From NCBI GenBank assembly GCA_040349255.1, contig JBEQUE010000144.1:15524-79523 (forward strand): a DNA stretch of 64,000 nucleotides, in the 5' to 3' direction. The position numbers and the translations under genes are program-made. Below, piece after piece: positions 2 to 20,400 of this stretch (positions within the stretch are counted from its first letter, which is position 1; each line of letters starts with the position of its first letter). The notes beneath the pieces were generated by a model, which saw only the letters and a list, made by a program, of their open reading frames with translations, was not told the DNA's origin and searched no databases. Source of the DNA: Acidobacteriota bacterium (lineage in GTDB: Bacteria; Acidobacteriota; Thermoanaerobaculia; Multivoradales; UBA5704).

Positions 2-193
2 CAGCGCTACGCCGAGCTGGCCGCCATGCTGAGCTCGGAGCTGGAGGACGTGCGCGCGTTCCCCGGCAAGAACCCGCTCCTGCTCACCGAGCTCTGGACG
101 GCCCACAACGACGCCCGGGGATACGCCCTGCTCGGCGATCCGGCGGTGCGCCTGCCCGAAGCTTCCACGACCGGAAAGCCGGAGCGCCCCTAG
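2..193 (+). CDS. 3' end of an upstream gene entering the window (C-terminal 63 aa, ...ELWTAHNDARGYALLGDPAV...). Product unknown. The 'LLGDP' tail is reminiscent of C-termini of caspase-fold (C25/clostripain-like) peptidases.
   Basis: Open frame from the window edge to TAG at 191-193, 3 nt before the ATG of the next gene. Codon usage matches neighbours. Confidence 0.4.
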   Translation, partial: QRYAELAAMLSSELEDVRAFPGKNPLLLTELWTAHNDARGYALLGDPAVRLPEASTTGKPERP

Positions 194-196
194 ACC

Positions 197-2280
<2,084 letters not shown>

Positions 2281-2299
<19 letters not shown>

Positions 2300-4674
2300 G
2301 CGAGCCCTCCAGCCAGTCGTCCGGCGAGCAGTCGGGCGGCAATCCCTACGTCGGCCCGCGCGCCTTCCGGACCGGGGAGCTCCTCTTCGGCCGCGACCGC
2401 GAGGTGCGCGAGCTGCTCTCCATGTTGATCGCCGACCGCATCGTGCTCCTCTACTCCCCCTCGGGAGCGGGGAAGACCTCGCTGATCCAGGCCCGGCTCG
2501 TCAAGGCGCTCGAAGAGGAAGACCTCCGCGTCCTGCCGCTCCTGCGCGTCTCCTCCGCGCCGCGCCCCGAGGACGCGGAGCTTTGCCAGGGAGCCAACCG
2601 CTACCTGCTCGGCACCCTCCTCTCCCTCGATCCCGACCGGCGGATCCCCGTCGCCGAGCTGGTGCGCCTCGGTCTCGACGGCCTTCTCGAGCGGTTCGCC
2701 GAGGAGAGCCAGGACGACCGGCCGCAGGTGCTGGTCTTCGACCAGTTCGAGGAGATCCTGACCCTCGATCCGGCGGACCAGGAGAGCAAGCGGAAGTTCT
2801 TCGAGGAGGCCGGCGCCGCGTTGCGCAACCCGCAGCGCTGGGCGCTGTTCTCCATGCGGGAGGACTACATCGGCGCGCTGGAGCCCTACGTGGGCCACCT
2901 GCCCTCCCGGCTGCGCACCATGTTCCGCCTCGACCTGCTGAGCCCGGCGGCGGCGAGCCTCGCGATCCGCGAGCCGGCCCGCTCCCGAAAGGTGGACTTC
3001 AAGAAAGCCGCGGCCGACCTCCTGATCGACGACCTCCGGACCATGCTGGTCCAGGGACCGGACGGGACGGCCGAAAAGAAGAGCGGTCCCTTCATCGAAC
3101 CGGTCCAGCTCCAGGTGGTGTGCCACCGTCTCTGGAGCCGGCTGCCGGAGGGCGCGACGGCGATCGAGGCCGACCAGATCGATCCCAAGGGCGGCGACGT
3201 GGACGCGGCGCTGGCCGAGTACTACGCGGAGTGGGCCGGGAGGATCGCGCAAGGGGACGAGACCCGGGAGCGGCTCGTCCGGGACTGGTTCGAGAACGCG
3301 CTGATCACGGAGCACGGGACGCGCGGGCAGGTCCTTCTGACCCCCGGAGAAAGCCAGGGCCTGGACAACGAGACCATCCAGTCGCTGGTCAAGGAGGCCC
3401 ATCTGGTGCGGGCCGAGGCGCGGCGGGGCGCCACCTGGTTCGAGCTCGCCCACGACCGCCTGATCGGGCCGGTGAAGGCCGGCAATGCCGAGTGGCGGGA
3501 GACGCACCTCGACGAATTCCAGCGGCGCGCCCTGGCCTGGGGCGAGCGCGGCCTGTATCCCGAGGCGCTCCTGCTGCGCGGCAAGTCCCTGGAGGAGGCG
3601 GAGGCTGGGACCGGAACCCGCACGCTCACGGACCTCGAGAAGGATTTCCTGGAGGCCAGCCGCAAGGCCCGCGAGGAAGCCGAGAAGGAGCAGGAGCTCC
3701 GGCGCGCGGGAGAGGAGCTGGTCTGGCAGCGGCGCCAGGCCCGGCGCCTTGCAGCGTTCATGGTCGTCGCGCTGGCGCTCGCGGCCTTCGCGACCTACAG
3801 CTACATCCAAGCCCGGGCCGAGACGAAGAGAGCGAACCAGGAGACGGAGCGTGCCAACCAGGAAGCGAAGCGGGCGGGCAAGGCCGAACAGCTCGCCCGG
3901 CAGAAGATCGAGCAGCTCCAGGCGACGAACGACAAGCTGACCCTGGCCAGCGCGAAGCTGCTCGAACAGAGCGAGCAGCTCGGCACGAGCGCCCCCGTGG
4001 AGCAGGTCGCCGCGGCGAAGGAGTTGCTCGCGCAGACCGGGGGTGAGGACGTGGGCATACCTGCCTTGTCCACGCCGGTCCGCGTGCAGTTCTTCGCGCG
4101 GAGCTCGGGGAGAAACGACCGCGCCATGGCGGCGCTCCGGAAGCAGGGATTCGAGGTCGAGCCCGAGAAGGGCAGATCGACGGTGGTCAACGCGGTCTGG
4201 TACGGCCCGGGCGTGGAGGCCGAGAGCGTCCAGCAGGTGATCCTGACCCTCATCGGCTCCGGCGTGGAGATCCAGCGGGTCGCGCCCACCAGCAAGCCCG
4301 GCCTGATCCAGGTCGGGACCGACGAGAGGTGGCTCTATCGCGACGCCCTGACGGTAGATCAGGTCGCGGCGCTGCAGCCCTGCTCGTCGGAGGAGGATCT
4401 GGCCTGTTCCGGCGCCCTCTCGGTGCCACCCGGTGGCAATTCCCGTCCCAGGTGCCGGAACATCGTGGCCTACGCGCAGCCGGCGAGCGCGAATCCAGGC
4501 AGGGTCTACTGGCTCCGCATCACCGCCGGCGGCCGGCCCTTCGAATGCAAGGACCTGATGTCCGGGCAGGGCTGCACCTTCTCCTTCCGCGGCAGGAAAT
4601 GGACCGCGACGCTCGGCGCCGTGGACTCCGCCGGCGCCGCGGCGGACGTGCGATTCGCTCCGGTGTGCGAGTAG
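2281..4674 (+). CDS. STAND-type P-loop NTPase (nSTAND-like) with coiled-coil segments, one predicted TM helix and a Cys-containing C-terminal domain
   Basis: ATG at 2281 overlaps the upstream gene by 19 nt. N-terminal GNPYVGPRAF..LLFGRD motif, Walker A SPSGAGKTSL, Walker B QVLVFDQFEE. Hydrophobic helix LAAFMVVALALAAFATYSYI flanked by Lys/Glu/Gln-rich coiled coil. Six Cys in the last ~110 aa. Confidence 0.8.
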
Positions 4675-4691: not shown

Positions 4692-6524
4692 ATGATCAGC
4701 GAGAAGCGTCTCAACGCACTGCGACATCTGCCCGGCTATCTGCACGAGATCGAAGACGGGGATCGACTGCGCGCCCTCCTGAGCTCCTTTTCCTTCCTGG
4801 AAAGGAAGGTCAGAAACCTGAATGCCTCCGAGCTGGTTTCTGACTATGAGTATCTTCCCGAGGACTCCCCACTGCGGCTCGTCCAGGCGGCGGTACGACT
4901 GTCAGCCTATATCTTGGACCGTGATCCTGGCCAGCTTGCAGGCCATCTTCTTGGACGACTCCTAGATCACGACGCGACCGAAATCACGGACCTGTTGGAC
5001 ACAATACGGGAGCAGCACCCCTTAGGATTGTTTCCGACTGTAGCCTCAATGACGCGGCCCGGGGGGGCACTGCTTCAAACCTTTTCGGCACTGCCCTCTA
5101 TTGGCACCATCTACGCCATCGTTCCAACCCTTGATGGGGAGCGTGTCGTGTCCGCATCCTCGGACCGGACGATCCGGATCTGGAGCCTCGCGTCGGGCCA
5201 AGCGCTCCGGATTCTGAGGGGACATGAAAGAGAGGTCACTGCGCTCAAGCTCATATCCGACGGTCGCCTTGCCGTTTCAGGCTCACGAGATCGGACGGTA
5301 CGAATCTGGGACCTGGAAACGGGTATCCAGAAGATAAAAATGCCGACAGCTCGGGGAGTGGAGGCTATAGCAGTGACGCCGAATGGCCAACAGGCCATAG
5401 CCGGCCTGGATGATGGCTCGATCGAGGTTCTGTCCATCTCGACGGAAGATGTACAGCATCTGTTCGGACATGAGAAACAAATCCTTTGCCTTGCGATCAC
5501 GCCGGACGAACAACGCCTGATTTCTGGATCGGAAGACGGAACTCTGCGCGTCTGGAATCTGTCGAGCGGTGCCCTGGAGCGAGTCGAAAGCTTTGGAATG
5601 AAGGTCTGGTCCGTAATCGCAACGCCTGAGAGCAGCAGACTCATCTTCTCTCTCCAGGATGGTACCATCGCCATCCACAACCTGATCGACGGACGCTCGA
5701 TCGACAGATTCAAGGGGCACCGCTTTCCAGCAACTTTCCTGACCCTTGCACGAGACGGCAGGACTCTGATCTCTGCGTCCAGCGGAAAGATCGTGATTTG
5801 CGATCTTGAAAACGTACACACGCAAACGACCATGGCTACGCCAGGTAATCTCTCGGCCATGGCTCTCACCTTGGATGAAAATCGCGCGTTGATCAGTAGC
5901 TATAGCGGTCGGATAACCTTGTGGGATCTCTCTGCGCTTCGACCGACGGAAGAACAGGCCGAGGAGCACAGCATTGGCTCGCTTGCCTTGATTCCAGGCA
6001 GTGCTCTTCTTCTCTCCGCGTCGGGCCGCACAGTCAAGATCTGGGATGCCGAGAAAGGACAAGAGATCCGGACGCTAACCGGGCATACGGATAGAGTCGC
6101 GAGCCTCGCGGTGTTACCAAACGGCGCTTACGCGGTCTCAGGCTCGCTTGACAAGACCATCAAGGTTTGGGATCTGAGAACCGGGGAGAACCTCCGAACG
6201 CTCCAAGGGCATGAAAGCGCGATCATCGCCCTCGCCGTCACAGAGGACGGGAAACGCGTCATCTCCGGCGGCCTTCATGCCGAAGTGAAGGTTTGGTCGC
6301 TGGAGGATGGGCGTGAGCTCTACTCCCGACGCAGACCTCGCGGCTACTTGACGACGCTTGCAGCGACCTCGGACGGGCGCCTCGCCGTTGTCGGCTTGAG
6401 GATGAGGGGAATGCATGGCCGACGATTCTCGACCTTACGACAGGTCGTGTCGTCGGAGAGTTGCGCGGGCATGAGGATCCAGTGGAGACAGCGCTTTTCC
6501 TCCCGGGTGACAACCGCATTCTGA
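4692..6524 (+). CDS. WD40 beta-propeller repeat protein with N-terminal helical arm (sensor module of NACHT-WD40 type); frame is lost near 6395
   Basis: ATG at 4692, 17 nt after the upstream stop. 'FSFLERKV' arm motif followed by ~10 WD repeats (DRTIRIWSL, DRTVRIWDL, DGTLRVWNL, DKTIKVWDL, VKVWSLEDG...). The last ~40 codons of the ORF are out-of-frame garbage. GC is lower than in the two upstream genes. Confidence 0.7.
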   Translation: MISEKRLNALRHLPGYLHEIEDGDRLRALLSSFSFLERKVRNLNASELVSDYEYLPEDSPLRLVQAAVRLSAYILDRDPGQLAGHLLGRLLDHDATEITDLLDTIREQHPLGLFPTVASMTRPGGALLQTFSALPSIGTIYAIVPTLDGERVVSASSDRTIRIWSLASGQALRILRGHEREVTALKLISDGRLAVSGSRDRTVRIWDLETGIQKIKMPTARGVEAIAVTPNGQQAIAGLDDGSIEVLSISTEDVQHLFGHEKQILCLAITPDEQRLISGSEDGTLRVWNLSSGALERVESFGMKVWSVIATPESSRLIFSLQDGTIAIHNLIDGRSIDRFKGHRFPATFLTLARDGRTLISASSGKIVICDLENVHTQTTMATPGNLSAMALTLDENRALISSYSGRITLWDLSALRPTEEQAEEHSIGSLALIPGSALLLSASGRTVKIWDAEKGQEIRTLTGHTDRVASLAVLPNGAYAVSGSLDKTIKVWDLRTGENLRTLQGHESAIIALAVTEDGKRVISGGLHAEVKVWSLEDGRELYSRRRPRGYLTTLAATSDGRLAVVGLRMRGMHGRRFSTLRQVVSSESCAGMRIQWRQRFSSRVTTAF

Positions 6525-6904
6525 CGGGCTCCTTTGATGCCACCATCCGCCTGTGGGATTTTGCGACCCGCCGGGAGTTGCTTCGACTGGAGGGGCACGC
6601 TGACAGAATCCTGAGCCTGGCGGTGACTCCGGACGGTCGCCACATCGCATCGAGCTCGGACGACAATACAGTGCGTGTTTGGCGTCTCGATACAGGGGAG
6701 TGCCTGGCTGTTTTCTTCGCAGAGGGAATAAGCGCTGCTTGCGCCATCTCGTTGGACGCCCAGTGCGTCTATGCTGGCGAACTGTCGGGGAAACTGCACT
6801 TCCTGAAACGGAAACCCTCCGTCATTCCTCTGAAAGCAAGTCCCCCCACAACACATCCGCAACCCGGCGGTTCGCTTCCATCAGATCGACGCCCTTCTCC
6901 TTGA
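6461..6904 (+). CDS. Continuation of the WD40 repeat protein in another frame (2-3 more WD repeats). Together with 4692-6524 it is either a frameshifted pseudogene or a sequencing indel.
   Basis: In this frame the WD pattern continues upstream to ~6392 (LEDEGNAWPTILDLTTGRVVGELRGHEDPV...IRLWDF...VRVWRLDTGE). It overlaps the convergent gene 6822-9968 by ~80 nt. Confidence 0.5.
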   Translation: MRGHEDPVETALFLPGDNRILTGSFDATIRLWDFATRRELLRLEGHADRILSLAVTPDGRHIASSSDDNTVRVWRLDTGECLAVFFAEGISAACAISLDAQCVYAGELSGKLHFLKRKPSVIPLKASPPTTHPQPGGSLPSDRRPSP

Positions 6905-9900
6905 CCTGATCCTTGCCCTTGATGAAGTCGTGGAAGGAGTCGTGATAGAGGCGATAGCGCAACTCCGGACCGTCGTCTCCGTCCTCCACGGAAATGGGTT
7001 GGAGGAACTGGCTCCATTCGTCGAGAGCCATCTGGACCCGGGCGCGGTCCTGAATTCCGGAGAAGTCGGAGATCAGGCCGGTGGAGATCGGCTCCCTCGC
7101 CACGGTGAGGCCAACGAGGACGGGCAGCTTGTATTCGAACCAGCCCTGGGTATCCAGCTCCTTCATGCGCTCCCACTGATCCTCGTAATAACTCTGGAGC
7201 CCTGTCGGCAGCGTTGTGAGGTCGCGCGTCTTGTAGGCTCCCTTCTCGATCTCCGGGAGGACATAGTGGAGATACATGAAGTTTCCTTCGCTGCGCTTCA
7301 CGAGCTCGTCGACAAAGGTCGCCTCGTCCAGACCCTGAGCGGTGATGTAGGCTCCGATGCCCGGCCGCAGGGCGTAATTCTGAGTGAAAAGCCGGACATC
7401 CGCGAAATTGTTCTCCCTTTCCCTCTGTAGATCGATGGTGTGGCCTTCGCAGGTGAACTGGAGCTTGAACTGGCCGCGCCGCGAGGTGACCACGGCAAAC
7501 ACGCCCGGCGGCAGGTCGGAAGGCAAGTACAGAGTGTTCGCGCCCTTCGACACCGCGCCCGAATCGGCTTCGTCCAGCGCATCGACCAGGAAAAGGAGCT
7601 TCGTCCCCGAGGCGAGAAGCTTGGTCGAAATCCCGCCCAGAAGCTCCTTGAGAAACCGGGGATCACGGGAGGCCTCCGGCGGCAGGGCGGAGTAGCCGAG
7701 ATCGAAGTCCCGGATGAGCTGCGCGCAGAGGTTGGGAAGGAACTGGGAGGGCTTCGTGATTCCTTCGGCGCGCACGTTGAAGTGGAGCGGGTACCGCCGG
7801 AGCTGCGCAAGCCTGGCGACGATCGCGGTCTTGCCGATCCCCGGATCGCCGAGGACCTGAATGTAACCACTGTTGCTCTTCTGAACGAAGTCGTCGAGAG
7901 CGTCGAAAAGCCATTGCCTTCCGACGTAGCCTTCGGTCTTGCGGCGGATGAGAGGCGTGAAATCGAGGATGTGCTTCTGGATCTCGGGCGGAGCCCGCTT
8001 TTCTGCGGGTTCGCGGACGCCCGGGGCGTCTCCCAGCGCGATCCGTCCGTTAGCGTGCGCATAGATCACATAGGTGAGCCAGGCGGGATCGTCCGCGTCC
8101 GCTTCGCGGAGAGCGAGACGCGCGATGCGCGCGGCACGGCCGAACGTCTCTCCCTGCGCGAGCGCGCCGTAAAAGCTTCTGGCGAATTCGAAGGCCCGGG
8201 AATCCCGGACCGGCCAGGCCGGCCCCAGGAAGGCGCCGCAGCCACAGACCCGCACCCAGCGATCGGCCCACCCGCCCAGGCCGGTCAGGGACCATGCCTG
8301 CTGTCCGATCCAGCAGGCATTGAGGAAGACCAGGGGGCGATTCCTGCCGATCTCCGTCGCGAGCGCTCCTGTCAGGTCTCCTGCCCGAAAGAAGCTCTCA
8401 TCCTCCAGAGGCAGGGCGGATTCATTCGGCTGATCCGGATTGAAGCCGCCGTGGCCAACGAAGTGAAGGAGATCGAGGCCTCCCTTTCCCAGAATGGTTT
8501 CGATCTCCTCCGCCGAGGCGACCGGGACGGTGGCATCCTCGATCCCGGAATGATCGCGCGCGAGATCCGTCACGAGCCCCTGCTCCTCTTCGGCCCGGGT
8601 CAGCTCGGAGCTCGTCGTGAAGCACGCGAGCCGCCGCACCTGAATCTCGGCCGCAGGGCTCCTGTTTCCCGCCAGCCACCGGGTGAGCTCAAACTGGATG
8701 CAGAGAAAATCGTCGTCGATGACGTCGTCAGGATCCTCCGCGTCATACGGCTTGACCAGCTCCCAGGGAATCCAGGGCTCGTCGGAGATGATCGTCAGCG
8801 TGGTTACAGAACGCCGGATCTTCCGGTAGAGCAGCTGCATTTCGCCGCTGAAGAGCTCGCGGTAGAGGTCCTGGCCGAGAGCCTCCAGCTTGCGCCGGAT
8901 CTCGCCACGCAGCAGCAGAGAGTCGTCCGTGTCGATCCGTTCGCCCAATTTCCGGACCTTGTCCAGAATGGACGAGCGGTATTCCTCGACACGGCCCTGG
9001 AACGACGGCCCATCGACCCCCCGATACGAGAAGCCGTCGATGCCGACTGGCGAATGGAGGATGTAATGGAGCTGTGTTCTTCCGTCGCGGAATCCAATCG
9101 TGACGCGGAGCTCGAGATCGACCGGCGCTGCGCTGGAGCTTGGCAAGGAGCGCGTTCCTCCCCGGGTGTCCAGGCCGGCGCCCTGAACAGATGCCGGCAG
9201 GGCCTTCTCCCCTTCGGAGACATCTGACTGCCGAATCTTCAGAATGACGTGTCGGAAGCCGTATTTATTTAAATCAATACCGCTCTTTGCAAATGCCCCC
9301 TGAAGAGCGTGCGCGCTGTCGCGCGGGAGATCTATAATTACCTTTGTGCTACCTTCTAATACTTTTCTGATATTGACATCTGAAAGCTCTATGTCGAGAA
9401 ACTTGGCAAGTGCATATTGAAGCCTGCTTCTCTCTACTTCGGAAAACTGTGCAAACTGCAGATCCAGGGTTACCTCTACTTTAGTAGTGGGTTGTCCATA
9501 GAGAGTGAAGGAGGGGAAATAACGACGCGCTACCTCGTGGCGTTTATATATCCTACCTTCAATTTCACGCCTAGTCCATACCGAAAGGAGATAAGGAGGA
9601 TGACTCACGCTAGTTGCTCCACGCAATTCCTCGTAAGCTTTATGAGTCACCCTCCCGTTTGTGATTAGAAAGAATCCTTCTACTTTGAACCTAGCGAGTA
9701 TGTTAACTATATTCCCAAGTTCACCTGGCTTGACGGTAGCATCTGCACTCTGCTTGTACTTGAACTGAGCAGCCCAACGCAACCGGCTGGGTGTAGCATC
9801 TGGAAGCATTATTGTCTGAAGGAGAATTGCGTCGACACCTCCGTCTGGACCAACACCCTGATCCTGCACTCCAAATCCCTCGACTGCGAGCAGGTCCATG

Positions 9901-9968
9901 CAGAGCTCTTGGAAGCGGTATCCATCGATAGTCTGCCAATCGACAGAAATCGGCCTAGTTAGTGTCAT
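6822..9968 (-). CDS. Multidomain defence protein: N-terminal Mrr-like PD-(D/E)xK restriction-endonuclease domain, CHAT protease domain, NACHT-type STAND NTPase, helical C-terminus
   Basis: 1048-aa ORF. REase motif GPDGGVDAIL...AAQFKYK at N-terminus. CHAT: EPWIPWELV, LLHFVGHGG ... LVFLNACWIG. NTPase: Walker A GDPGIGKTAI, Walker B LLFLVDALDEAD. The first ~250 codons (9215-9968) are markedly AT-richer. Confidence 0.85.
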   Translation of the reverse strand: MTLTRPISVDWQTIDGYRFQELCMDLLAVEGFGVQDQGVGPDGGVDAILLQTIMLPDATPSRLRWAAQFKYKQSADATVKPGELGNIVNILARFKVEGFFLITNGRVTHKAYEELRGATSVSHPPYLLSVWTRREIEGRIYKRHEVARRYFPSFTLYGQPTTKVEVTLDLQFAQFSEVERSRLQYALAKFLDIELSDVNIRKVLEGSTKVIIDLPRDSAHALQGAFAKSGIDLNKYGFRHVILKIRQSDVSEGEKALPASVQGAGLDTRGGTRSLPSSSAAPVDLELRVTIGFRDGRTQLHYILHSPVGIDGFSYRGVDGPSFQGRVEEYRSSILDKVRKLGERIDTDDSLLLRGEIRRKLEALGQDLYRELFSGEMQLLYRKIRRSVTTLTIISDEPWIPWELVKPYDAEDPDDVIDDDFLCIQFELTRWLAGNRSPAAEIQVRRLACFTTSSELTRAEEEQGLVTDLARDHSGIEDATVPVASAEEIETILGKGGLDLLHFVGHGGFNPDQPNESALPLEDESFFRAGDLTGALATEIGRNRPLVFLNACWIGQQAWSLTGLGGWADRWVRVCGCGAFLGPAWPVRDSRAFEFARSFYGALAQGETFGRAARIARLALREADADDPAWLTYVIYAHANGRIALGDAPGVREPAEKRAPPEIQKHILDFTPLIRRKTEGYVGRQWLFDALDDFVQKSNSGYIQVLGDPGIGKTAIVARLAQLRRYPLHFNVRAEGITKPSQFLPNLCAQLIRDFDLGYSALPPEASRDPRFLKELLGGISTKLLASGTKLLFLVDALDEADSGAVSKGANTLYLPSDLPPGVFAVVTSRRGQFKLQFTCEGHTIDLQRERENNFADVRLFTQNYALRPGIGAYITAQGLDEATFVDELVKRSEGNFMYLHYVLPEIEKGAYKTRDLTTLPTGLQSYYEDQWERMKELDTQGWFEYKLPVLVGLTVAREPISTGLISDFSGIQDRARVQMALDEWSQFLQPISVEDGDDGPELRYRLYHDSFHDFIKGKDQVKEKGVDLMEANRRVADVLWGDLLSEE
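9131..9162. repeat. ~28-bp direct repeat (GGAGCTTGGCAAGGAG...CTCC), copy 1, inside the REase-CHAT-NACHT gene just downstream (in gene sense) of the low-GC module
   Basis: Near-identical to 10039-10070 by direct reading. Confidence 0.6.
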
Positions 9969-10489: not shown

Positions 10490-10588
10490 AGCGCGTACCT
10501 CCCGGGTTTTCCATCTGTCCGCGTCGATTATCTCATTGATACGCCCGCCTGTCAGTCGAACACGGAGAACGAGACGCGGCCCGATTGA
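10181..10588 (+). pseudogene. Truncated, frameshifted duplicate of the lipoprotein gene 5' end (paralog of 11980-13251)
   Basis: Identical signal/lipobox (MRQPIPTL.LLALPLLAACATSS). A 14-residue stretch differs through a +1/-1 indel pair. The copy diverges after ...GQPL into the boundary motif and terminates. Confidence 0.6.
10504..10550. repeat. ~46-bp boundary motif copy 2 (GGGTTTTCCATCTGTCCGCGTCGATTATCTCATTGATACGCCCGCCT)
   Basis: See 10073-10118. It lies at the junction between the truncated lipoprotein copy and the 3' end of the DUF4157 gene. Confidence 0.5.
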
Positions 10589-11883
10589 CGGATCTGCGCC
10601 GCACGCCGCAACACCTTGGGATCGTGGCGCAGCCGTTCATAGACCCAGGGCTCCTGGTCCCGGAGCCTCCCCTCGCGCGCCCGGCGCTCGAGCTGGATCA
10701 GGAACTCGCCCATGGACTGATAGTAATTTTCATCGTACATCTCGCCCTTCTCGTCCCAGGTGAGCTCCTCTCCGAGAAGCGATCTCTTGAGGAGCGCGGC
10801 GGCGCGGCGGTTGTACGGGTAGGTATCGAACCCCTGCAGCTCGGCGCGCTCCTCCTTCGTGATCGTTCCCAGGATCCGTTTCGCGGAAAGAGCGGCGGCG
10901 CGCGGATTGTCCGGATAACCGTTGTAGCCCTGCAGCTCGGCCTCTTCCTGCCGGGACAGCGGCCCGGCGGCCTGCTTCGCGCGCAGCGCGGCGGCGCGCG
11001 GGTTCTCGCGCGTCCCATCCGGAGACCAGAGGCCGGCGTCGAAGCTGCGGTCCCGCGCCACGAGCCGCGAGAAATGGCCGCGAAGCTCCTCCTGCTCCGC
11101 CGGCGTGATCGTCCCCGCGTCCTGTTTCGCGTAGAGCATGGCGGCGCGCGGGTTGTCGGGGAAGCTCGCGATGCCGCGGAGCTCCGACAGCTCCGGCTTC
11201 GTGATCGTGCCGAGGATCCTCTTCTTCTGAAGCGCGGCGGCGCGCGGGTTGTTCGGATACGCGTTGCGCGCCTGCCGCTCCGCGACCTCTGGCGATGGTG
11301 GCGACGGCCTCTCCTCCACGGCGGGCGCCGGAGCGCCCGGCACCGGATCGCGGGCGATGACCGCAGGATGGAGCGACCCGGCGCCGGACCGCAGGCCCTG
11401 CGCCTCGGCCGGAGACGCGGCGCGAGCCATCCGATGCGCCTGCCGCTCCTGGGCGGAGTCCGGGGAGCCGAGCTGGAGCGGCCCCTCCGGCATGGGCGAC
11501 CCGGACCGCTGCATGACGTGGGACAGCTCGTGGTACAGGCGGTGGCGGCCGGTCTCGGTGTCCGGGGCGTAGCCGCCGCTTCCGAAAACGATGTGAGGAC
11601 CGAGAGTGTAGGCGTTGGCGTGCAGCGCGCGGGCCGACTCCGCCGCGCTCTCGCCGGTGTGGATCCGCACGTTGCTGAAGTCGAATCCGAGCCGCTGCTC
11701 GGCCGTGTCGCGGATCGAAGCGTCCAGCGGTTGACCCGGATGACGCAAAGCCCCCTCCGCGGTGGACGAAAGATCCTCGCCGGAAGCCGTGTCATTCCCC
11801 CGCTGGGAAACGCGCCGGCCGGACGAGGACGGAGAACGCATTCCGGTCGAAAACCCGCGCCGTTCGTGGTCGAACCTGTTCAT
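10552..11883 (-). CDS. DUF4157-type zincin-like metallopeptidase-domain protein with C-terminal tandem ~33-aa repeats
   Basis: N-terminal GQPLDASIRDTAEQRLGFDFSNVRIHTGESAAESARALHANAYTLGPHIVFG...HELSHVMQ (HExxH). Six to seven repeats of the consensus PDNPRAAAL.AKRILGTITKEE.AEL.G. Probable ATG at 11883 with a GGGAGG SD; the track ORF extends to a GTG at 11907. Confidence 0.8.
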   Translation of the reverse strand: MNRFDHERRGFSTGMRSPSSSGRRVSQRGNDTASGEDLSSTAEGALRHPGQPLDASIRDTAEQRLGFDFSNVRIHTGESAAESARALHANAYTLGPHIVFGSGGYAPDTETGRHRLYHELSHVMQRSGSPMPEGPLQLGSPDSAQERQAHRMARAASPAEAQGLRSGAGSLHPAVIARDPVPGAPAPAVEERPSPPSPEVAERQARNAYPNNPRAAALQKKRILGTITKPELSELRGIASFPDNPRAAMLYAKQDAGTITPAEQEELRGHFSRLVARDRSFDAGLWSPDGTRENPRAAALRAKQAAGPLSRQEEAELQGYNGYPDNPRAAALSAKRILGTITKEERAELQGFDTYPYNRRAAALLKRSLLGEELTWDEKGEMYDENYYQSMGEFLIQLERRAREGRLRDQEPWVYERLRHDPKVLRRAAQIRQSGRVSFSVFD

Positions 11884-11916
11884 GCTTGCTCTCCAGCCTC
11901 CCAACACCCCACATCT

Positions 11917-13347: not shown

Positions 13348-14190
13348 GTGAGAAAAAGAGGCGTTCCGGCAATGCTCGTGCTCTCTGCCCTGCTCGGTCT
13401 CTCCCCTCTGGCCGCCGATCCCACGATCCGGCGCGGCATCGACGTCTTCACCACCCGCGCCGACGGAAGGACCTACTACGACTTCGCCAAGCAACCCATT
13501 CCCGCGGGTTTCTTCTGCAACGCCTCCAAGGCCTTCACCGGCCGGGTGCCGCTCAAGGGGCTGCCTCTCGCAACCCAGACGCCGGGAGAGCTCCGGAATG
13601 CCGACACGATCGTCGAGCGTCTCGACGATGCCGTCTTCAACGGTAAGGACGTTGCCGAGACGCGCATCCGATTCCGGGCCTTGTCGCTGGTGAGCATCGC
13701 CCCCATCAAGACGGCCTGCGGCGACTTCCATGTCTACGTCACCCTCAACGGCCCGCAGCGGGCGACGACGATGAGCATCAGCCGCACCCAGCAAGGAGGC
13801 GGGACCTTTTCCGCGCCTCTCGCGGTCGACGCGCGCATGACCTTCATCCCCGTGAAGAAGTCCGTGAAATCCGCGACCGGCAACAGCGCGCAGAAGTGGG
13901 AGCTCACCGGAAGCTTCACCTTCCCTGCCAGCCCCGTCGCGTGGAGCCTGGGAAATGAGGCGATGAAGAGAATCAGCTCCCCGGTCGTCGACACCAATGG
14001 AGACCTGACTCCGGACACGCGGCTTCCCGGCACCTCGAACTTCCTGGCGGGCACGCCGCCCGGCAATGTCATGACTGGCGCGTACGGCAATATCGGGGCC
14101 TGCCCGTGTGAGCCGGTATGCCATGCCACCTCCGGCGAGATGCACTGCTCCTACCCGACAGAAGACTGCTACCCCGTCGTCTGTCCATAA
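13348..14190 (+). CDS. Secreted hypothetical protein with Cys-rich C-terminus
   Basis: N-terminal signal peptide MRKRGVPAMLVLSALLGLSPLAADP. Eight Cys near the C-terminus (ACPCEPVCHATSGEMHCSYPTEDCYPVVCP). Confidence 0.7.
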   Translation: MRKRGVPAMLVLSALLGLSPLAADPTIRRGIDVFTTRADGRTYYDFAKQPIPAGFFCNASKAFTGRVPLKGLPLATQTPGELRNADTIVERLDDAVFNGKDVAETRIRFRALSLVSIAPIKTACGDFHVYVTLNGPQRATTMSISRTQQGGGTFSAPLAVDARMTFIPVKKSVKSATGNSAQKWELTGSFTFPASPVAWSLGNEAMKRISSPVVDTNGDLTPDTRLPGTSNFLAGTPPGNVMTGAYGNIGACPCEPVCHATSGEMHCSYPTEDCYPVVCP

Positions 14191-14287: not shown

Positions 14288-14851
14288 TTAGAGGAAGATC
14301 TCGCCGAGAGGGATCTCCAGGCCGGGCAGGAGCGGGCTGGTCAGAATGTCGCCATCCGCCGCGGTCAGCTCCGCGCCCCCCTGGAGGCATTCCCCCATCC
14401 TGCGGAAGATCCGGGCCGCGTTCCGCGTCGGATCGACCATCCAGTACTCCTGGACGCCCAGGATCTCATAGCGCTCCAATTTGAGACCCTCGTCCCGTTT
14501 CCGAGTCGACGGCGAGAGCACCTCGATGACGAGGTCCGGCGCTCCCTGGACGTTCATCTCGGTAAGAATCCTCGCTCTCGCCTGGGAGACGAACAGGAGA
14601 TCCGGCTGGACGACGTCATGCTTGCCGAGCAGAACGTCGGCGGGAGCCACAAAGAGACGGCCCAGTCGATGACGGCGGACGAACGGCGCGATCCAGGAAG
14701 TCAGCTCGACGACGATGCTCTGATGCCACAGGTTCGGAGCCGCCGTCACGAAGTGCTCCCCGTCGAGGATCTCGTGACGGTACCCATCCTCCGGGAACAG
14801 GAGGTAGTCCTCGTAGGTGAGCTTGCGACGGACTGGATCTCGAAGGGCCAT
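14288..14851 (-). CDS. Uma2-family (DUF820) PD-(D/E)xK endonuclease-like protein
   Basis: MALRDPVRRKLTYEDYLLFPEDGYRHEILDGE...PDLVIEVLSPST.R.DEGLKLERY. The start is taken at an internal ATG; the track ORF extends upstream. Confidence 0.7.
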   Translation of the reverse strand: MALRDPVRRKLTYEDYLLFPEDGYRHEILDGEHFVTAAPNLWHQSIVVELTSWIAPFVRRHRLGRLFVAPADVLLGKHDVVQPDLLFVSQARARILTEMNVQGAPDLVIEVLSPSTRKRDEGLKLERYEILGVQEYWMVDPTRNAARIFRRMGECLQGGAELTAADGDILTSPLLPGLEIPLGEIFL

Positions 14852-15021
14852 GGCGACTCCCGTTTGCAGAGCCAGGAAGAGTTTAGCACGGGACACAATC
14901 CTCGGGTCGGAAGAAGTTCCGCCGGAGGATATCTCAGGACTCGCCGTCGTGGAACTCGCGACGAGGCTCGACTGCAATCGAGTCCGCGCTCCTCGAATCC
15001 TCGGACACCTTCTCCCGGAAT

Positions 15022-17424
15022 TCACGCTTTCCGGCGGCAGATAATCTTGTCTCCACTCGTTCCCACGTGATCAAAATACTTGGTTATGATCTCATGGCAA
15101 TGTCGACAACTGGGCCTTATGTCCTCGTGAAGTTCTAGGATGAGGGTATCCACTCTAGGAAGCCAGGAGGCGGAGGTCTCGAGGACCTCGACCTCAGAGC
15201 CTTCGATGTCGAGCTTCAGTATGTCGATGAAAGAGATGCCATACTCCTCCATAAGCCCATCGACAGTGACGGCTGGAACGGTTTGCATAACACTCCTACC
15301 ATCTAGATCACCTTCTACGGTCTGGAATCCCCATGCTCCACTTCCACCATCGATAACCTGGACGCAGGCTTTCTTGCACCAGAGCGCCCCTCTCACTGGG
15401 AATATATTTGGGAAAGGCATCGAATTTCGAACCAGGAGTTGAAAGTTGTGTTCCTCGGGTTCGATCGCGATGATTCGGGCATCGGGATATCGCAGGGCAA
15501 AGTCAACCGATGAAGCACCTATGTTGGCTCCCCCGTCAACAATCACTTTTGGAGGATGTCCGACCTCAAGGATATGAGGCTTCTCGCGGAAGATCTCGCG
15601 ATACACATCGAGATCCGTGGTCTCTGGTCGTATGTGCAGAATGTGACTACCTTCCAGGGCAACCCTTATTGTTGCCTCGTCGAGTTCGGTCCCATTGACA
15701 CTCTCTCCAGTCTCGCCAAACGAAAAATAAGAAGTAGCGGCCAGCCCAAGAAGGCGCTGCCCGACAGGCAGCAAAGAATGGATGTCTTCCCACTTATTTT
15801 CCCATAACGAACCTTGAAAGCCGAGTTCTTTCCAGAGGCGCTCGGCAAAATTGGGCATTATTGGCGCAGAGAGGATGGCCAAGAGCTTCGCCGCGAGCAG
15901 TTCTAGCGCGACGGCTGTCCGCCGCCTTTCATTTTGCGCGATAACTCGAAGCCAGCTTTCCTCGGATTTCGCGAAGCGCCTCGCATCGCGAACGAGCCAA
16001 CCGAGGACGCTTGCAGCGCACTGAGGCGAGAACGTCCTCGCCTCGTAGGCTTTGCTCGCCTGGGCAGTTAGCATGGTTAGTCGTTCTGCGAATCGCAAGT
16101 GCTCTTCCGCCCAACTACCAGCCCCAGGCACCCGTTCCTCGAACTCTCTAGCAGCCCGAACCGCCAATTCCCTGAGCCAAGCCTGCCATTCACGGATCAG
16201 TTCCCGGTCCACGTCCGCGGCGAGCTCAGCCAAACTGAAGTTGGTCCTCTCCACCTCGGGATATGTTGTCGCCATGTGAAAGCGTAGGGAGTCTGCGGGC
16301 ACCCTGCTCAGCAGATGCTGTCCCCAGATTGCATGCTGCCGGCTGGTTGAGAACTTGGAATGATCAAGAAGACGGAACTCGTTCATGAGCAGCGCCGAAG
16401 GAAGACGGATTTGCGAGTCAAAAGCCATCAGCAACGCGGGCACCAGAACTGCGTAGTAAAAAGCATTGTCGAATCCGAAACATTGAATAGCAAGGGAATC
16501 CCCATTCTTCCAGAATTGCTCCCAGCGGCCATCGAGATGCTGGGCATAGGTGAGATAGCGCGCGGCTTCGTCGCACCACGTATAGACTGTCTGGCCCTCG
16601 AATCCTGGAATTGCAATCGGCACCCCCCAGTTATCGTAATGAGAAACAGCAAAATTCCAGAAACCAACCTGTAGAGCCTGCTCGCAGAAAGATCTCAGAT
16701 TAGAGCTCATCGCCACCTTGCTCCAATATTCCTGCAGCCTGCCGCTATACTGGTCAAGCGGGAAGTAGAGGCGCTTCATAGCCCTGAAGGACGGAGGAGC
16801 GCCGCACTGGGCGCAGACCGGATCCAGAAGATCTACACAGCGGTTGGGCATACCGCAACTCTCACATCCGCTTCCCGTGGTACGGCTTCCACAATAGGGG
16901 CAGTGTCCAGAGATATAGTTCTCATAAAGCTGGCGACGACACGGTTCACAATAGGTAGTCGGGTCCACGCGGGAAATGAGCAATCCACGGGCATACAGGT
17001 TACCTAGAAAATCTTGTACGGTCGGTACGTAGAAGAGCGATGAATTCGGCCGAATAAACTGGTCGACGTCAATCCGCGCCCCCCTGAGCGTACTCGCTAT
17101 ACTTTCCGCCATTTGGTCTGCAACCTGCTGAGGGGAGACGCCAGCCTCCATTGCATGGATCTTGACGTCACTCTGATTGTCATCTGTACCAGTGAAAAAG
17201 TGAACCTCTGCGCCACGAAGCCGGAGGTAGCGCGACTGAATGTCTCCTGCAAGGTAGGGCCCGGAGAGATGGCCCACATGCAGATCGCCATTCGGGGTTG
17301 GGGGCGCTGCCATGACAAGTACGCGAAGAGAAGCATAGCGCAACGTATCCCGGCAGTCGCTCGCCAGGCCCTCGACCGCTCCATAACTAGAAATTATCTG
17401 CTTCTTCTCCCTGGGTTCTTCCAT
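15022..17424 (-). CDS. Methionyl-tRNA-synthetase-like class I aaRS catalytic domain (HIGH/KMSKS-like, Zn knuckles) fused to a C-terminal FkbM-family methyltransferase domain
   Basis: PPTPNGDLHVGHLSGPYLAGDIQSRYLRLRGAEVHFFTGTDDNQ (MetRS-like HIGH region). CEPC...CPYC...CESCG...CAQCG knuckles. LLDHSKFSTSRQ (KMSKS-like). C-terminus VVDGGANIGASSVDFALRYPDARIIAIEPEEHNFQLL (FkbM MT motif). ATG at 17424 with GGAGAG SD. Low-GC gene. Confidence 0.8.
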   Translation of the reverse strand: MEEPREKKQIISSYGAVEGLASDCRDTLRYASLRVLVMAAPPTPNGDLHVGHLSGPYLAGDIQSRYLRLRGAEVHFFTGTDDNQSDVKIHAMEAGVSPQQVADQMAESIASTLRGARIDVDQFIRPNSSLFYVPTVQDFLGNLYARGLLISRVDPTTYCEPCRRQLYENYISGHCPYCGSRTTGSGCESCGMPNRCVDLLDPVCAQCGAPPSFRAMKRLYFPLDQYSGRLQEYWSKVAMSSNLRSFCEQALQVGFWNFAVSHYDNWGVPIAIPGFEGQTVYTWCDEAARYLTYAQHLDGRWEQFWKNGDSLAIQCFGFDNAFYYAVLVPALLMAFDSQIRLPSALLMNEFRLLDHSKFSTSRQHAIWGQHLLSRVPADSLRFHMATTYPEVERTNFSLAELAADVDRELIREWQAWLRELAVRAAREFEERVPGAGSWAEEHLRFAERLTMLTAQASKAYEARTFSPQCAASVLGWLVRDARRFAKSEESWLRVIAQNERRRTAVALELLAAKLLAILSAPIMPNFAERLWKELGFQGSLWENKWEDIHSLLPVGQRLLGLAATSYFSFGETGESVNGTELDEATIRVALEGSHILHIRPETTDLDVYREIFREKPHILEVGHPPKVIVDGGANIGASSVDFALRYPDARIIAIEPEEHNFQLLVRNSMPFPNIFPVRGALWCKKACVQVIDGGSGAWGFQTVEGDLDGRSVMQTVPAVTVDGLMEEYGISFIDILKLDIEGSEVEVLETSASWLPRVDTLILELHEDIRPSCRHCHEIITKYFDHVGTSGDKIICRRKA

Positions 17425-17454
17425 ACACACTCTCCATGGCTGACTTAAATTAGC
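17425..17454. promoter_or_regulatory. 30-bp divergent intergenic spacer between the aaRS-like/FkbM gene and the CHAT-SIR2-NACHT gene. Promoters must overlap the coding regions.
   Basis: ATG 17424 (minus) and ATG 17455 (plus). Confidence 0.3.
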
Positions 17455-20400
17455 ATGCCTGACTATAACATACCGAAGACCTCGCCGAGAAGAGTCCTCG
17501 TTCTGTCGACAAACCCTGAGGATACCGAAAGGCTAGCACTTGAACGGGAAACCCGTCAAATTGAGCGTGCATTAGCGCATCGCGAAGGAAGTTTCACGGT
17601 GCGACACGCTATGGCTGCTCACCTTGAAGATCTCGAGGACAGCCTATTCGATTTTAAGCCGCAGTACGTTCATTTCTGCGGCCATGGCTTAAAAGGAGGC
17701 CGAGGTCTTGCCTTCCAGGATGACTCGGGAAGGACGAGTCCCGTTACCACGCGGCAGCTTAAGGAGTTGTTCTCTATCTTCAAAACGAACATCAGCTGCG
17801 TATTTCTCAATTGCTGCTTTTCGCGCCCCCAGGCAGAAGTGATTTCCGCTCATGTCCCCTACGTGATTGGAACAAGTGAGGCGTTTGACGATGAGTTGGC
17901 CGTTGTCTTCGCTTCAAAGTTCTACAAGGCGATTGGTCGTGGAAAAACGGTCCCATTTGCGTTCAAGTTCGCCCGCGCTGTTACCGCCGACAATTTGGAT
18001 TCCCTGATTCCGGTCCTAGTCCGAGGGCGGCGCAAAAATAAAACAAACCCTGGAGATAGCGTCGGCTCTTCTGGCACCAGCCAGTGGAAGGCAGGAAATT
18101 TAGGGCAACCCAAGGAGTTCCGCTCGTTCGATTTAGAAGCAAAGGAAGAACAGGCTTCGTTACACCTCAATACCTCGCAAAAAGAACAGGATCAGGATGC
18201 TCGGCGCGCTTCCCTGAGCCGCCTCTGGAATCGATTAGAACAAAAGCGCGAAGCCGTCATTTTTCTGGGTTCTGCTGCCTGCGCGGAGGGCTTCAAGGAG
18301 GGCAAGCCCTACCCCAGCTTGGATGCCATCGCCAAGCGAATTCTCGATGATGAAGGTCGAAGCACTGGCAATATGACCGACGTTCGCAAGGAGCTGAGAA
18401 ATACATTGCGGATGTGGACTGAAGGGGAGGGAGATCTTTCCGATTTTCTCCGAAAATATATTTCAGGGCAGCCCGGCGCTGCCCATCACTATCTTGCAGC
18501 CTTGGCTCTAGGCCTTTTCCCGGAGTTCAATCTCCTTCTGTTTGTAACGGCCGGATTCGATGACTTGATGGAGGAAGCATTCGTCAGTCTGCTAAGAGGT
18601 GAAACCCGACCCAAGATAAGGCATTACAGCATTGGGCATCAAGAAGAAACAGTTCCTAGAATTTTCGAGGAAGTCTCCGGTCAAGTGCGCAAGGGAGTGC
18701 CTGTTATACTCAAACTATTTGGCGATCTGGACGCAGAGAGTCCCCTGCTCTACCCAAAGACCAAAATTCGTCAGAAGCTTGGGAGCAGTATTCAAGGCTG
18801 GTTCAGCCGTCCCGTGCTCTTCATCGATTGCGGGCCCGAGGATAAAGCCTTTGAAGATTTGTTCTTTAAGACAGAAAAGCGTGGCCCCTTGTTTGTTATT
18901 GGTAAGAACCTTGCACAATATCGAAACGATCCTACTATTCATCATGTCGCCATATCGCTCATGGAATTCGGCCTAGAGTTCCTCGATATGGTGAGATCTA
19001 AAAATCAGGACCTTCTTAAGCGGGTAGAAGATCTCCTGCATAATGTAGATCCTCTCGCGCTCTATCCTGATTGTGAATCTATCATGGCACGCGCCGCTAT
19101 CGCCTCTCGCGCTTCGTTACTACGGGTGGAAGAGCGACTGCCGCGTAGCCGTTCCAATGAGGAAGGCCACGCCTTTGTGCCCATCGCTCGAATTGACACG
19201 CAACCTGATTTCGCGGCCTTCTTGCGGGACGGTAGGCCTCTCCTTGCATTAATCGGTGATTCCGGTTCCGGTAAGTCTACTCTCTTCTACCAAGTCCACC
19301 AAGCCGCGGGTGCTTTCATTTCGATCTTTTATGACATCCATCAACTTCAGGCCACGCGCACGCTTGCTGGTAGGCTTGCCCACGACTTCCTCTGTGACGA
19401 ACGCAATTTCGTCGACCTTGTTAGAGTACTCGACAAGGCATTGAAATTTGAGCAGCGAAAGCTTGTCATTTTTATTGATGGACTCAACGAAAGCCTTGAT
19501 CTGAAGCCTTCCACCTTGCGCTTTGAAATCGAGGATCTTGGCGCGAAACTGCCAGGAACAATCAAGATTGCCTATTCGTGCCGCAGAGTCTATTGGGACA
19601 ATTTCATCCGCAATACATCGCCGCTTTCCAAAGAACTATACTTTAATTCAAAAGAAATAGTTCTAGAGCACTTTTCTCCAAGAGAGGCGGAAAGCGCCTT
19701 CAAGTCATACCAGGAACTTTACGGATTCCTCGGTAACTATGCTTCATTGAGCTCCGAATTCAAGTTGAGAATTAAGGACCCGCTGATGTTGCGTATGCTC
19801 GCAGAGGGTTACGCGGGGAAGAAGCTTCCTGATTTCGCGCCTGCAGTGCTGATCTTCGATACTTACCATAAACGTTTCCGGCAGCGCTTCAAAGGCACTG
19901 TTGTACCGGCTTTCCTCGATGCGCTAGTGGCCGCGAAGGTAAATGAGACCGAGGCGGAACTCGCCTCCGATCAGTTCATCACTGAAGATGTGCGAACGCA
20001 CCCGAAACTCAGTCTTCTGATTCAACAGCAGATGTTGAATGCGCATCGGGGTGGGGACCCACTCCTGCTCCTCGAAGATGAAGGGATACTGACAGCTATC
20101 GATGACGATAGCACATCCTATCGATTCGCCTACGACCGGTTTTTTGAATATCTACTCGGAAAATCACTTTCAAAACTTCTGACTACCGGTTCTAGAGAGA
20201 GGTTCCGAGAGCGTCTTGAGAAGCAGATACGTAGATTAAGCCCCTTTCATTTTTCCTTCCTGCAAGCGCTGAAGTCGGAGGTCATTCGTCTCAACATTCT
20301 CGAGCCAAGCGGGCCCTGCTCCTTTTACGACCCTGAACTTGTGAGAGGACTTCTTGAGAACGAGGATGCGGGGATCGTTGCGTTCACGAAGGACCTGTTA

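Follow-up and report, generated by a model that had tools for sequence, protein, structure and literature searches.

A predicted membrane-spanning nSTAND1 ATPase with two small C-terminal domains, encoded beside caspase-fold partner genes in an Acidobacteriota bacterium

Introduction

Do STAND ATPases survey only the cytoplasm, or can they also respond to events on the far side of the cytoplasmic membrane? To our knowledge, outside-in signalling across a membrane has not been demonstrated for any STAND protein, and the characterised bacterial STAND immune sensors that we know of (Avs, bNACHT) are all described as recognising phage proteins within the cell. The question is raised by a gene at positions 2281-4674 of a 64,000-nucleotide stretch of DNA from an Acidobacteriota bacterium (GenBank assembly GCA_040349255.1, contig JBEQUE010000144.1, positions 15,524 to 79,523 of the forward strand), which is referred to as the window in the following. 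A first-pass annotation of this stretch had predicted a STAND nucleoside triphosphatase (NTPase) with a transmembrane helix in the middle of the protein, which would place an ATPase on one side of the membrane and a possible sensor or effector domain on the other.

The encoded protein falls into the nSTAND1 family, which was named by Kaur, Iyer, Burroughs and Aravind (eLife 2021, PMC8195603). From the N- to the C-terminus, a P-loop NTPase module of about 470 residues and a charged helix are followed by a hydrophobic helix, by some 75 residues of helical stalk and by two small domains, referred to as A and B. Residue numbers are counted from the ATG at position 2281 throughout. Taken as one joint explanation that includes sensing and the control of proteases, the assignment of this gene product as an nSTAND1-family STAND (NLR-like) protein that crosses the inner membrane once is given slightly better than an even chance.

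An nSTAND1 ATPase with a Hydrophobic Helix in Mid-Protein

The profile score, the P-loop motifs and the STAND-type fold all agree with membership in nSTAND1. The Pfam profile nSTAND1 (PF20703) matches residues 22-395 over profile positions 1-341 of 379, with 105.5 bits versus a cut-off of 27.1 and an E-value of 6.5e-30. Judged by the patterns GxxGxGK[ST] for Walker A and hhhhD followed by acidic residues for Walker B, both motifs are intact (SPSGAGKTS, residues 59-67, and LVFDQFEE, residues 151-158), and G62, G64, K65, T66, D154, E157 and E158 are invariant across 55 homologs. The full-length AlphaFold2 model has a mean predicted local distance difference test (pLDDT) score of 83.7, with values above 90 for residues 20-480, and its best Foldseek matches in the Protein Data Bank (PDB) are ORC2/Cdc6, the archaeal ATPase PabY2304, Avs4 (8dgf) and CED-4 with E-values from 9e-8 to 7e-6. 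As modelled, the N-terminal region combines a STAND/AAA+ core with helical and winged-helix modules. Searches of the STAND protein against NCBIfam and PHROGs returned nothing informative.

The mid-protein segment of 20 hydrophobic residues on which the first-pass annotation had based its prediction is present in the open reading frame (ORF) as residues 490-509 (LAAFMVVALALAAFATYSYI), and the uncharged stretch extends from 490 to 511. None of these 22 residues is charged, whereas 51% of the preceding 45 and 34% of the following 59 residues are. The two charged coiled coils that were said to flank the segment are likewise found in frame, LEKDFLEAS...RRQARR at residues 452-489 and ETKRANQ...NDKL at residues 514-553, each as a charged helix. 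Within residues 445-489, 12 K/R and 11 D/E are crowded into 45 positions, and R488 is nearly invariant among the 55 homologs. Both hydrophobicity scales single out 490-511 as the sole candidate for a membrane span in the protein: the Kyte-Doolittle 19-mer peak reaches 1.92, with a runner-up of 1.26, and the Wimley-White octanol sum is -5.97 kcal/mol compared to -1.21 kcal/mol for the runner-up. In the AlphaFold2 model, the segment lies at the end of a long helix (451-503), exposed and outside the NTPase core, and is followed by the helices 514-567 and 573-587; the confidence is low across residues 502-528.

The homologs clearly retain this feature. Of the 120 best database homologs, 117 have a hydrophobic 19-mer with a value of 1.6 or more behind the NTPase, at an equivalent place (residues ~460-530). 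Such a 19-mer also lies within 150 residues after the NTPase in 69 of the 77 nSTAND1 ORFs taken from species genomes of GTDB, which share 23-50% identity and span the Chloroflexota, Acidobacteriota, Actinomycetota, Proteobacteria, Myxococcota, Verrucomicrobiota and Bacteroidota. In many homologs the helix is rich in Ala and Gly. What is conserved is the hydrophobicity of the segment and not its sequence, and to judge from the alignments this is the look of a lipid-facing anchor rather than of a packed helix. A predicted mid-protein transmembrane helix is hence the default architecture of the nSTAND1 clade studied here. In this respect, the earlier description as atypical for STAND proteins was overstated, as the helix is the norm of the family and transmembrane bacterial STAND proteins are already mentioned in the literature (see the last section).

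Orientation in the Membrane

The comparison of homologs argues strongly for a cytoplasmic NTPase and a periplasmic location of the stalk and domains A and B (N-in, C-out), because the distribution of positive charges, the nature of the N-terminal enzyme, the domains that follow the helix in homologs, the contexts of domains A and B and the paired cysteines all point independently in this direction. Among the 117 homologs with the helix, the 15 residues before it contain 5.67 K/R on average versus 2.99 in the 15 residues after it; the N-terminal side is the richer one in 102 of them (Wilcoxon p 6e-17). In addition, the conserved RRQxRR motif adjoins the helix on its N-terminal side, and the N-terminal 470 residues constitute a nucleotide-dependent enzyme without a signal peptide.

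The region after the helix is the part that is exchanged among homologs, as in other STAND proteins, which answers a point that the first-pass annotation had left for a check. Its replacements include WD40, TPR, FGE-sulfatase, LysM with CBM9, PD40, TSP3 and trypsin domains. Specifically, LysM (568-611) and CBM9 (711-905) follow the helix in P0075, TSP3 repeats in P0068, PD40 in P0067 and P0025, Trypsin_2 in P0058 and FGE-sulfatase in P0077, all of which are typical extracytoplasmic types. The predicted arrangement of an ATPase on one side of the membrane and an extracytoplasmic C-terminal part on the other is thus favoured by the family-wide charge bias, post-helix domains, domain contexts and cysteine pairs alike.

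The Stalk and Domains A and B

A HMMER search with residues 570-797 against 1.84 billion representative proteins gave 59 matches. These split cleanly into two sets, so that domains A and B are separate units.

Domain A is predicted to adopt the order beta-alpha-beta-beta-alpha-beta-beta, and its motifs NA[IV]W[YF]G and IQVG are nearly invariant. It recurs in 71 proteins. All close orthologs (P0002-P0023) have it, as do further nSTAND1-transmembrane proteins (twice in P0125, also P0134 and P0143) and many small proteins of 150-290 amino acids. In 36 of the 49 non-orthologous occurrences, one or two hydrophobic, transmembrane-like segments (19-mers) lie upstream of domain A, and the rest look like fragments; several of the transmembrane-like proteins that were inspected also carry a coiled coil. 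In the versions with two transmembrane helices, the loop between the helices is rich in K/R (e.g. DPKDPKKRK in P0130), which therefore places domain A outside. Such free-standing membrane proteins, composed of two transmembrane helices, a coiled coil and domain A, were seen in P0129, P0130, P0132 and about 30 others as well as in the locus L083. The neighbourhood of P0130, the sole context of a free-standing domain A protein that was looked at, contains no conflict genes, and domain A may therefore have a housekeeping role in the envelope.

The distance between domain A and the last preceding transmembrane helix is constrained (median 81 amino acids, interquartile range 72-89, in 56 domain A proteins), which suggests a stalk of defined length. 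The 54-residue helix of the stalk would span about 8 nm and could reach the wall layer. LytR_C (PF13399) was considered as an identity for domain A and rejected: the match has 15.6 bits versus a cut-off of 22.2 (E 0.03), and only 3 of 49 members match at E<0.1. Searches of PDB sequences with the C-terminal region singly and with a profile of domain A yielded no credible relative.

Domain B contains the six cysteines near the C-terminus that had already been pointed out (701, 709, 725, 756, 765 and 796); the first 700 residues hold only two (102 and 281). The domain is rare and occurs in eight representative proteins besides the closest orthologs P0002 and P0003. Four of the carriers have signal-peptide-like starts (P0123, P0128, P0131, P0138), and P0121 begins with transmembrane helices. 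P0137 has the order alpha/beta-hydrolase, transmembrane helix, PG_binding_1 and domain B, P0122 combines it with an alpha/beta-hydrolase and no obvious transmembrane helix, and one further carrier is a fragment. All six cysteines align across the family, and absences are strictly pairwise: C701 and C796 are lost in P0002 and P0003, C709 and C725 in P0123, and C756 and C765 in P0128. This pattern implies three disulfides (1-6, 2-3, 4-5), which in turn argues for an oxidising compartment.

With respect to the suggested structural check of the C-terminal region, AlphaFold2 and Foldseek revealed no common cytoplasmic fold and no significant match. The refutation that had been named, i.e. a buried coiled-coil element followed by a common cytoplasmic fold, is at odds with a helix that is exposed in the model and conserved in hydrophobicity only, and with domains that have neither Pfam nor PDB relatives. 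The features of the gene and of its partners are compiled in Table 1.

Table 1. Positions of the nSTAND1 gene, its predicted parts and the two upstream partner genes in the window.
Feature	Position	Strand	Basis or description
nSTAND1-transmembrane-stalk-domain A-domain B gene	2281..4674	+	single ORF; 100% identical to P0001; overlaps upstream stop
nSTAND1 NTPase module, residues 22-395	2344..3465	+	Pfam PF20703, Walker A/B, AlphaFold2, Foldseek
Charged juxtamembrane helix, residues 451-489	3631..3747	+	AlphaFold2 helix 451-503; ends in conserved RRQxRR motif
Predicted transmembrane helix, residues 490-511	3748..3813	+	Kyte-Doolittle 1.92; Wimley-White octanol -5.97 kcal/mol; uncharged
Predicted extracytoplasmic helical stalk, residues 512-587	3814..4041	+	AlphaFold2 helices 514-567, 573-587
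Domain A, residues 598-697	4072..4371	+	alpha/beta; AlphaFold2 pLDDT ~87-91; motifs NA[IV]W[YF]G, IQVG
Domain B, residues 700-796	4378..4668	+	all-beta, six Cys; AlphaFold2 6-7 strands, pLDDT 65-85
CHAT and SIR2_2 fusion, 700 amino acids, putative effector partner	197..2299	+	Pfam CHAT, SIR2_2
Caspase-fold Peptidase_C25-like gene, last 62 codons; rest lies beyond the window start	2..190	+	matches C-termini of L001, L002 proteins

Gene Start and Upstream Partner Genes

The region 2281-4674 is a single ORF that gives 797 amino acids if translated from the ATG at 2281. It forms the 3' part of a longer open frame (547-4674, forward strand), in which the coding gene starts at the end of the upstream gene (197-2299). 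The true start is probably TTG 2296, which gives 792 amino acids, because it is preceded by a GGAGGA box (2283-2288) at a spacer of 7 nt, forms a TTGA overlap with the stop of the upstream gene (TGA 2297-2299), and agrees with the 792-amino-acid NCBI protein P0001 and with the N-termini of homologs (MSEPSS). P0001, which is identical (100%) to the encoded protein, is listed by NCBI as 'MAG: AAA family ATPase [Acidobacteriota bacterium]'. The shift of the start by 5 residues alters no result. The overlap of the start with the upstream stop implies translational coupling to the upstream gene.

This upstream gene encodes a fusion of a CHAT domain, a clan CD cysteine peptidase (PF12770, residues 57-335, E 1.4e-30), with a SIR2_2 domain (residues 499-669, E 2.6e-17; window 1691-2203, forward strand). 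The CHAT dyad of His215 (CHG) and Cys261 (SCES) is invariant in 3 orthologs, and the PADLOC model SAVED_CHAT matches the CHAT region with an E-value of 7e-8. Beside orthologs of the STAND protein with 78%, 67% and 48% identity, CHAT-SIR2 genes overlap the nSTAND1 start by 4-17 nt. Among the 78 GTDB nSTAND1 genes with enough upstream sequence, the ORF directly upstream encodes CHAT plus SIR2 in 35 cases and SIR2 only in nine. In the closer relatives (L004-L050), the counts are 35/48 and 4/48, respectively, and the exceptions are mostly the second or third tandem paralog of the same locus. The CHAT-SIR2/nSTAND1 pairing recurs across several phyla. As to the organisation of such loci, tandem nSTAND1 paralogs with differing C-termini are frequent within one locus (L005, L011, L033, L036), and some polypeptides contain two nSTAND1 modules (listed with P0024 and P0025).

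The SIR2 domain is degenerate. The Asn of the TTN motif is kept (N504), and the position of the His in the HG motif is occupied by Phe563, as aligned to PDB entry 9v0g and its double mutant 9v12. Since the canonical catalytic His is a Phe, depletion of NAD+ cannot be assumed: it may be possible, is doubtful as the default expectation, and was downgraded as the default effector activity. The SIR2-like domain may instead serve as a regulatory or scaffolding module. In many of its relatives, a His is found two residues earlier (YHLFG), where the window protein has a Tyr.

A further partner gene precedes CHAT-SIR2 and is cut by the start of the window. Its frame-2 translation (QRYAELAAMLSSELEDVRAFPGKNP...ARGYALLGDPAVRLP) matches the C-termini of the proteins encoded at L001:4371-5843 and L002:4476-5894, which have 472-490 amino acids and are encoded upstream of CHAT-SIR2, i.e. 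in the same position as the window gene. The Pfam family Peptidase_C25 (PF01364) matches the L002 protein with an E-value of 4e-10 and the L001 protein only with 0.13, and the window holds only the 62 C-terminal residues. Both full-length proteins contain SHG and FACYGAG motifs, and neither has a signal peptide. C25-like domains are present in the loci of 21 of the 78 GTDB nSTAND1 genes; in L015, the domain is fused to the N-terminus of nSTAND1 and the transmembrane helix is retained. As it occurs either fused to nSTAND1 or as a separate neighbour without a signal peptide, the C25-like domain is presumably a cytoplasmic partner of the NTPase.

Wider Neighbourhood

Directly downstream of the nSTAND1 gene lies a WD40-repeat gene (4692-6524, forward strand), at which the guanine-plus-cytosine (GC) content drops from about 0.70 to 0.61. 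This gene was considered as a component of the system and rejected, as it is absent beside orthologs and lies past the GC drop. Its last ~35 residues (RRFSTLRQVVSSESCAGMRIQW...) are unlike WD40 sequence, and its 3' end may be frameshifted or truncated. A convergent gene (6822-9968, reverse strand) encodes 1048 amino acids with an Mrr_cat restriction-endonuclease domain, a CHAT domain and a STAND-like AAA_16 domain, and has the appearance of a further conflict system within this island, distinct from the first. An eCIS_core protein (PF13699, E 5e-28; 10552-11907, reverse strand) and a putative endonuclease of the Uma2 type (14288-15025, reverse strand) follow. Uma2 also occurs close to the orthologous system of L002, and orthologs have toxin-antitoxin genes and an integrase nearby. 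The wider region thus looks like a conflict island.

Between window positions 14000 and 26000, the GC content is 0.50-0.59 versus ~0.70 elsewhere, and this stretch looks horizontally acquired. It contains a fusion of a methionyl-tRNA synthetase with an FkbM methyltransferase (15022-17430, reverse strand), a 1484-amino-acid protein with a weak CHAT match (17455-21909, forward strand), a DegT aminotransferase and a myo-inositol-1-phosphate synthase.

Proposed Mechanism and Alternatives

What could a STAND switch with this architecture do? The most likely role is that of an envelope-facing STAND sensor which controls a protease-based response. The mechanism outlined here is built by analogy and draws in part on published work (PMC12642450, PMC8195603). 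As with Avs, NLR proteins and the apoptosome, a cue would be bound or monitored by the variable part of the protein, here by the ectodomains, which would face the envelope or the outside; this cue could be a component of a phage or foreign cell, or a change in the wall. The stalk and transmembrane helix would then relay the change and release autoinhibition, upon which the NTPase modules could assemble into an oligomer on the cytoplasmic side of the membrane. This assembly might gather the clan CD proteases, i.e. the CHAT domain and the C25-like protein, and activate them by proximity. Finally, the proteases would cleave cellular or partner proteins, leading to growth arrest or cell death. A sensor role is proposed because the region after the helix is exchangeable and the length of the stalk is constrained. 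In its most specific form, the proposal is an outside-in innate immune receptor, a bacterial transmembrane NLR-like protein in which disulfide-bonded ectodomains held ~80 residues above the inner membrane detect a periplasmic signal of phage, predator or envelope damage before, or without, invasion of the cytoplasm, and drive STAND oligomerisation and a two-protease cascade of CHAT and C25-like enzymes. This version is tentative, with a chance well short of even.

Several observations weigh against an envelope sensor that controls proteases. The predicted transmembrane helix is rich in Ala and only moderately hydrophobic, and the K/R bias of the encoded protein alone is weak (5 versus 4), because the stalk itself is highly charged. 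Domains A and B belong to no Pfam family and have no significant Foldseek match, so that the term 'sensor' is an argument by position. In L020, L021, L046 and P0024, a C-terminal C25-like domain replaces the transmembrane helix and ectodomain, so that an outside sensor is dispensable for the core machine. As to the partner, 45 of 59 nSTAND1-linked SIR2 domains have Phe at the His position, only five have His, and 30 keep the catalytic Asn. Among the PADLOC models, the sole match to the STAND protein is mad8 (E 0.011, over the P-loop), and no described defence system was matched. Moreover, no relative with experimental characterisation was found.

Conceivably, the helix and ectodomains merely anchor and position the complex, for example through a tether to the wall at a fixed height. 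Sensing of the trigger would then be a cytoplasmic task of the NTPase or helical module or of the C25-like or CHAT-SIR2 partner, and the membrane would only place the response where phage DNA enters. The relatives with a cytoplasmic C25-like domain in place of helix and ectodomain would fit such an anchor, as would the small free-standing transmembrane and coiled-coil proteins that carry domain A in the absence of a conflict context, and a constrained stalk length is also expected for a spacer. The high exchangeability of the region after the helix, often by ligand-binding or repeat modules (WD40, TPR, FGE-sulfatase, LysM, CBM9), is by contrast the pattern of STAND sensors, and an anchor without sensing is considered unlikely, albeit worth serious thought. 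A little less probable again is a signalling or developmental receptor ATPase outside immunity, which would report the state of the envelope, contact with neighbours or the recognition of kin, and control regulated proteolysis or programmed cell death in a bacterium with a social or aggregating way of life. Conflict systems of the nSTAND type have been tied to bacteria of multicellular habit (PMC7159879, PMC8195603), and the relatives found here come from the Chloroflexota, Actinomycetota, Myxococcota and Acidobacteriota; the lack of a match to PADLOC defence models would also be in keeping with this idea. It accords poorly with the conflict-island neighbourhood, i.e. the Mrr_cat-CHAT-AAA_16 and Uma2 genes here and the toxin-antitoxin genes and integrase near orthologs, and with the tandem paralogs, whose differing C-termini (L005, L011, L033, L036) are typical of diversifying immune receptors.

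The helix itself might also be the effector, if NTP-driven oligomerisation bundled the helices and stalks into a membrane-disrupting pore. Transmembrane segments serve as effectors in other bacterial immune systems, and many homologs have a helix rich in Ala and Gly. A pore is nevertheless improbable, as each protomer contributes a single, moderately hydrophobic helix, large and varied folded ectodomains with disulfides would be needless, and the genes of the protease partners are conserved and translationally coupled. Least credible, and already disfavoured, is a wholly cytoplasmic protein in which the segment is a buried or coiled-coil helix. Its Ala-rich composition, its position between long charged helices and the fall of AlphaFold2 confidence across 502-528 would permit this. 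Against it speak the 22 uncharged residues between flanks that are 34-51% charged, a hydrophobicity that is conserved without sequence, the positive-inside K/R bias over 117 homologs, the LysM, CBM9, PD40 and TSP3 domains that follow the helix in homologs, and the occurrence of domain B, with its covarying Cys pairs, in proteins with signal peptides.

If the variable region is a sensor, the envelope-facing arrangement would carry consequences beyond this locus. To judge from the homologs, most members of the family place the variable, sensor-like region outside the cytoplasmic membrane, and NLR-type immunity would then extend to surveillance of the envelope and the exterior. Should this be true, it would merge a function that plants split between surface receptors and intracellular NLRs. 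The CHAT-SIR2/nSTAND1/C25-like module, present in several phyla, may be a cascade of proteases with a degenerate SIR2 domain at its centre. With one predicted transmembrane helix, two small ectodomains with a predicted disulfide pattern and coupled protease partners, the locus offers a compact test case.

Comparison with Known Systems

In the literature searched, which was covered incompletely, neither a description of the CHAT-SIR2/nSTAND1/C25-like module nor an analysis of transmembrane STAND topology, ectodomains or mechanism was found. The searched text of the papers that named the family does not discuss a transmembrane helix after the NTPase or an operon with CHAT-SIR2 and C25-like genes. 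Individual mentions of membrane association exist: 'transmembrane STAND ATPases' are listed among protease-fused sensors (PMC12642450), a transmembrane label appears in a figure legend on DGR and nSTAND1 (PMC10907252), and 'transmembrane (TM) domains' form a category of bNACHT C-termini (Kibby et al., bioRxiv 10.1101/2022.07.19.500537). The latter bNACHT proteins resemble the protein described here as bacterial STAND proteins with transmembrane segments in the C-terminal region. They differ in that the present clade is nSTAND1 and not NACHT, and has a single transmembrane helix followed by folded ectodomains.

With the nSTAND1 family (PF20703), the protein shares the family-level NTPase match, the variable C-terminal region and, in conflict systems, the association of its gene with caspase-fold peptidases and NAD-related domains. 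Its C-terminus is not of the WD40, TPR or FGE-sulfatase kind and instead consists of two domains without a Pfam family, one of them predicted to be disulfide-bonded. Avs proteins (e.g. Avs4, PDB 8dgf) have the same STAND NTPase core (Foldseek E 2.4e-6), and by analogy the expected logic of C-terminal sensor, NTP-dependent oligomerisation and effector activation by induced proximity may also be alike. Avs proteins act in soluble form in the cytoplasm, where they detect phage terminase or portal, and have the effector fused to the N-terminus, whereas the protein here is predicted to span the membrane, with the presumed sensor outside and the effectors encoded by separate genes, and is matched by no PADLOC Avs model.

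The apoptosome (Apaf-1/CED-4 with caspase-9/CED-3) likewise combines a STAND ATPase with caspase-fold clan CD proteases on separate polypeptides, which makes activation by proximity a natural model. The present system differs by the absence of an N-terminal CARD or EAD adaptor, as the NTPase begins at residue 22, by its predicted membrane anchor and by two clan CD proteases (CHAT and C25-like). The CHAT proteases of type III CRISPR and CBASS-like systems (SAVED-CHAT, Craspase) have a CHAT domain with a conserved His/Cys dyad as well, and the presence of another caspase-fold protein in the operon is reminiscent of a proteolytic cascade. Here, however, no SAVED or CRISPR component is present, the fusion partner of CHAT is a SIR2-like domain, and the fusion is coupled to a STAND protein. 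The SIR2 NADase effectors (ThsA, DSR1/2, SIR2-HerA) share the SIR2_2 domain and the Asn of TTN, and weak sequence matches connect the domain to ThsA and other solved SIR2-family proteins, including the NADase KomC. In contrast to these effectors, Phe563 stands at the canonical His, which makes NADase activity doubtful.

In overall layout, the predicted protein resembles the PknB-type Ser/Thr kinases with PASTA domains, which are N-in/C-out proteins with a cytoplasmic catalytic module, one transmembrane helix and extracytoplasmic ligand-binding domains; the output module in the present case is a STAND oligomerisation switch and not a kinase. Taken together, the locus encodes an ordinary member of nSTAND1 that represents a little-studied kind of receptor; its two ectodomains are undescribed, and the SIR2 domain of its partner is unexpectedly degenerate.

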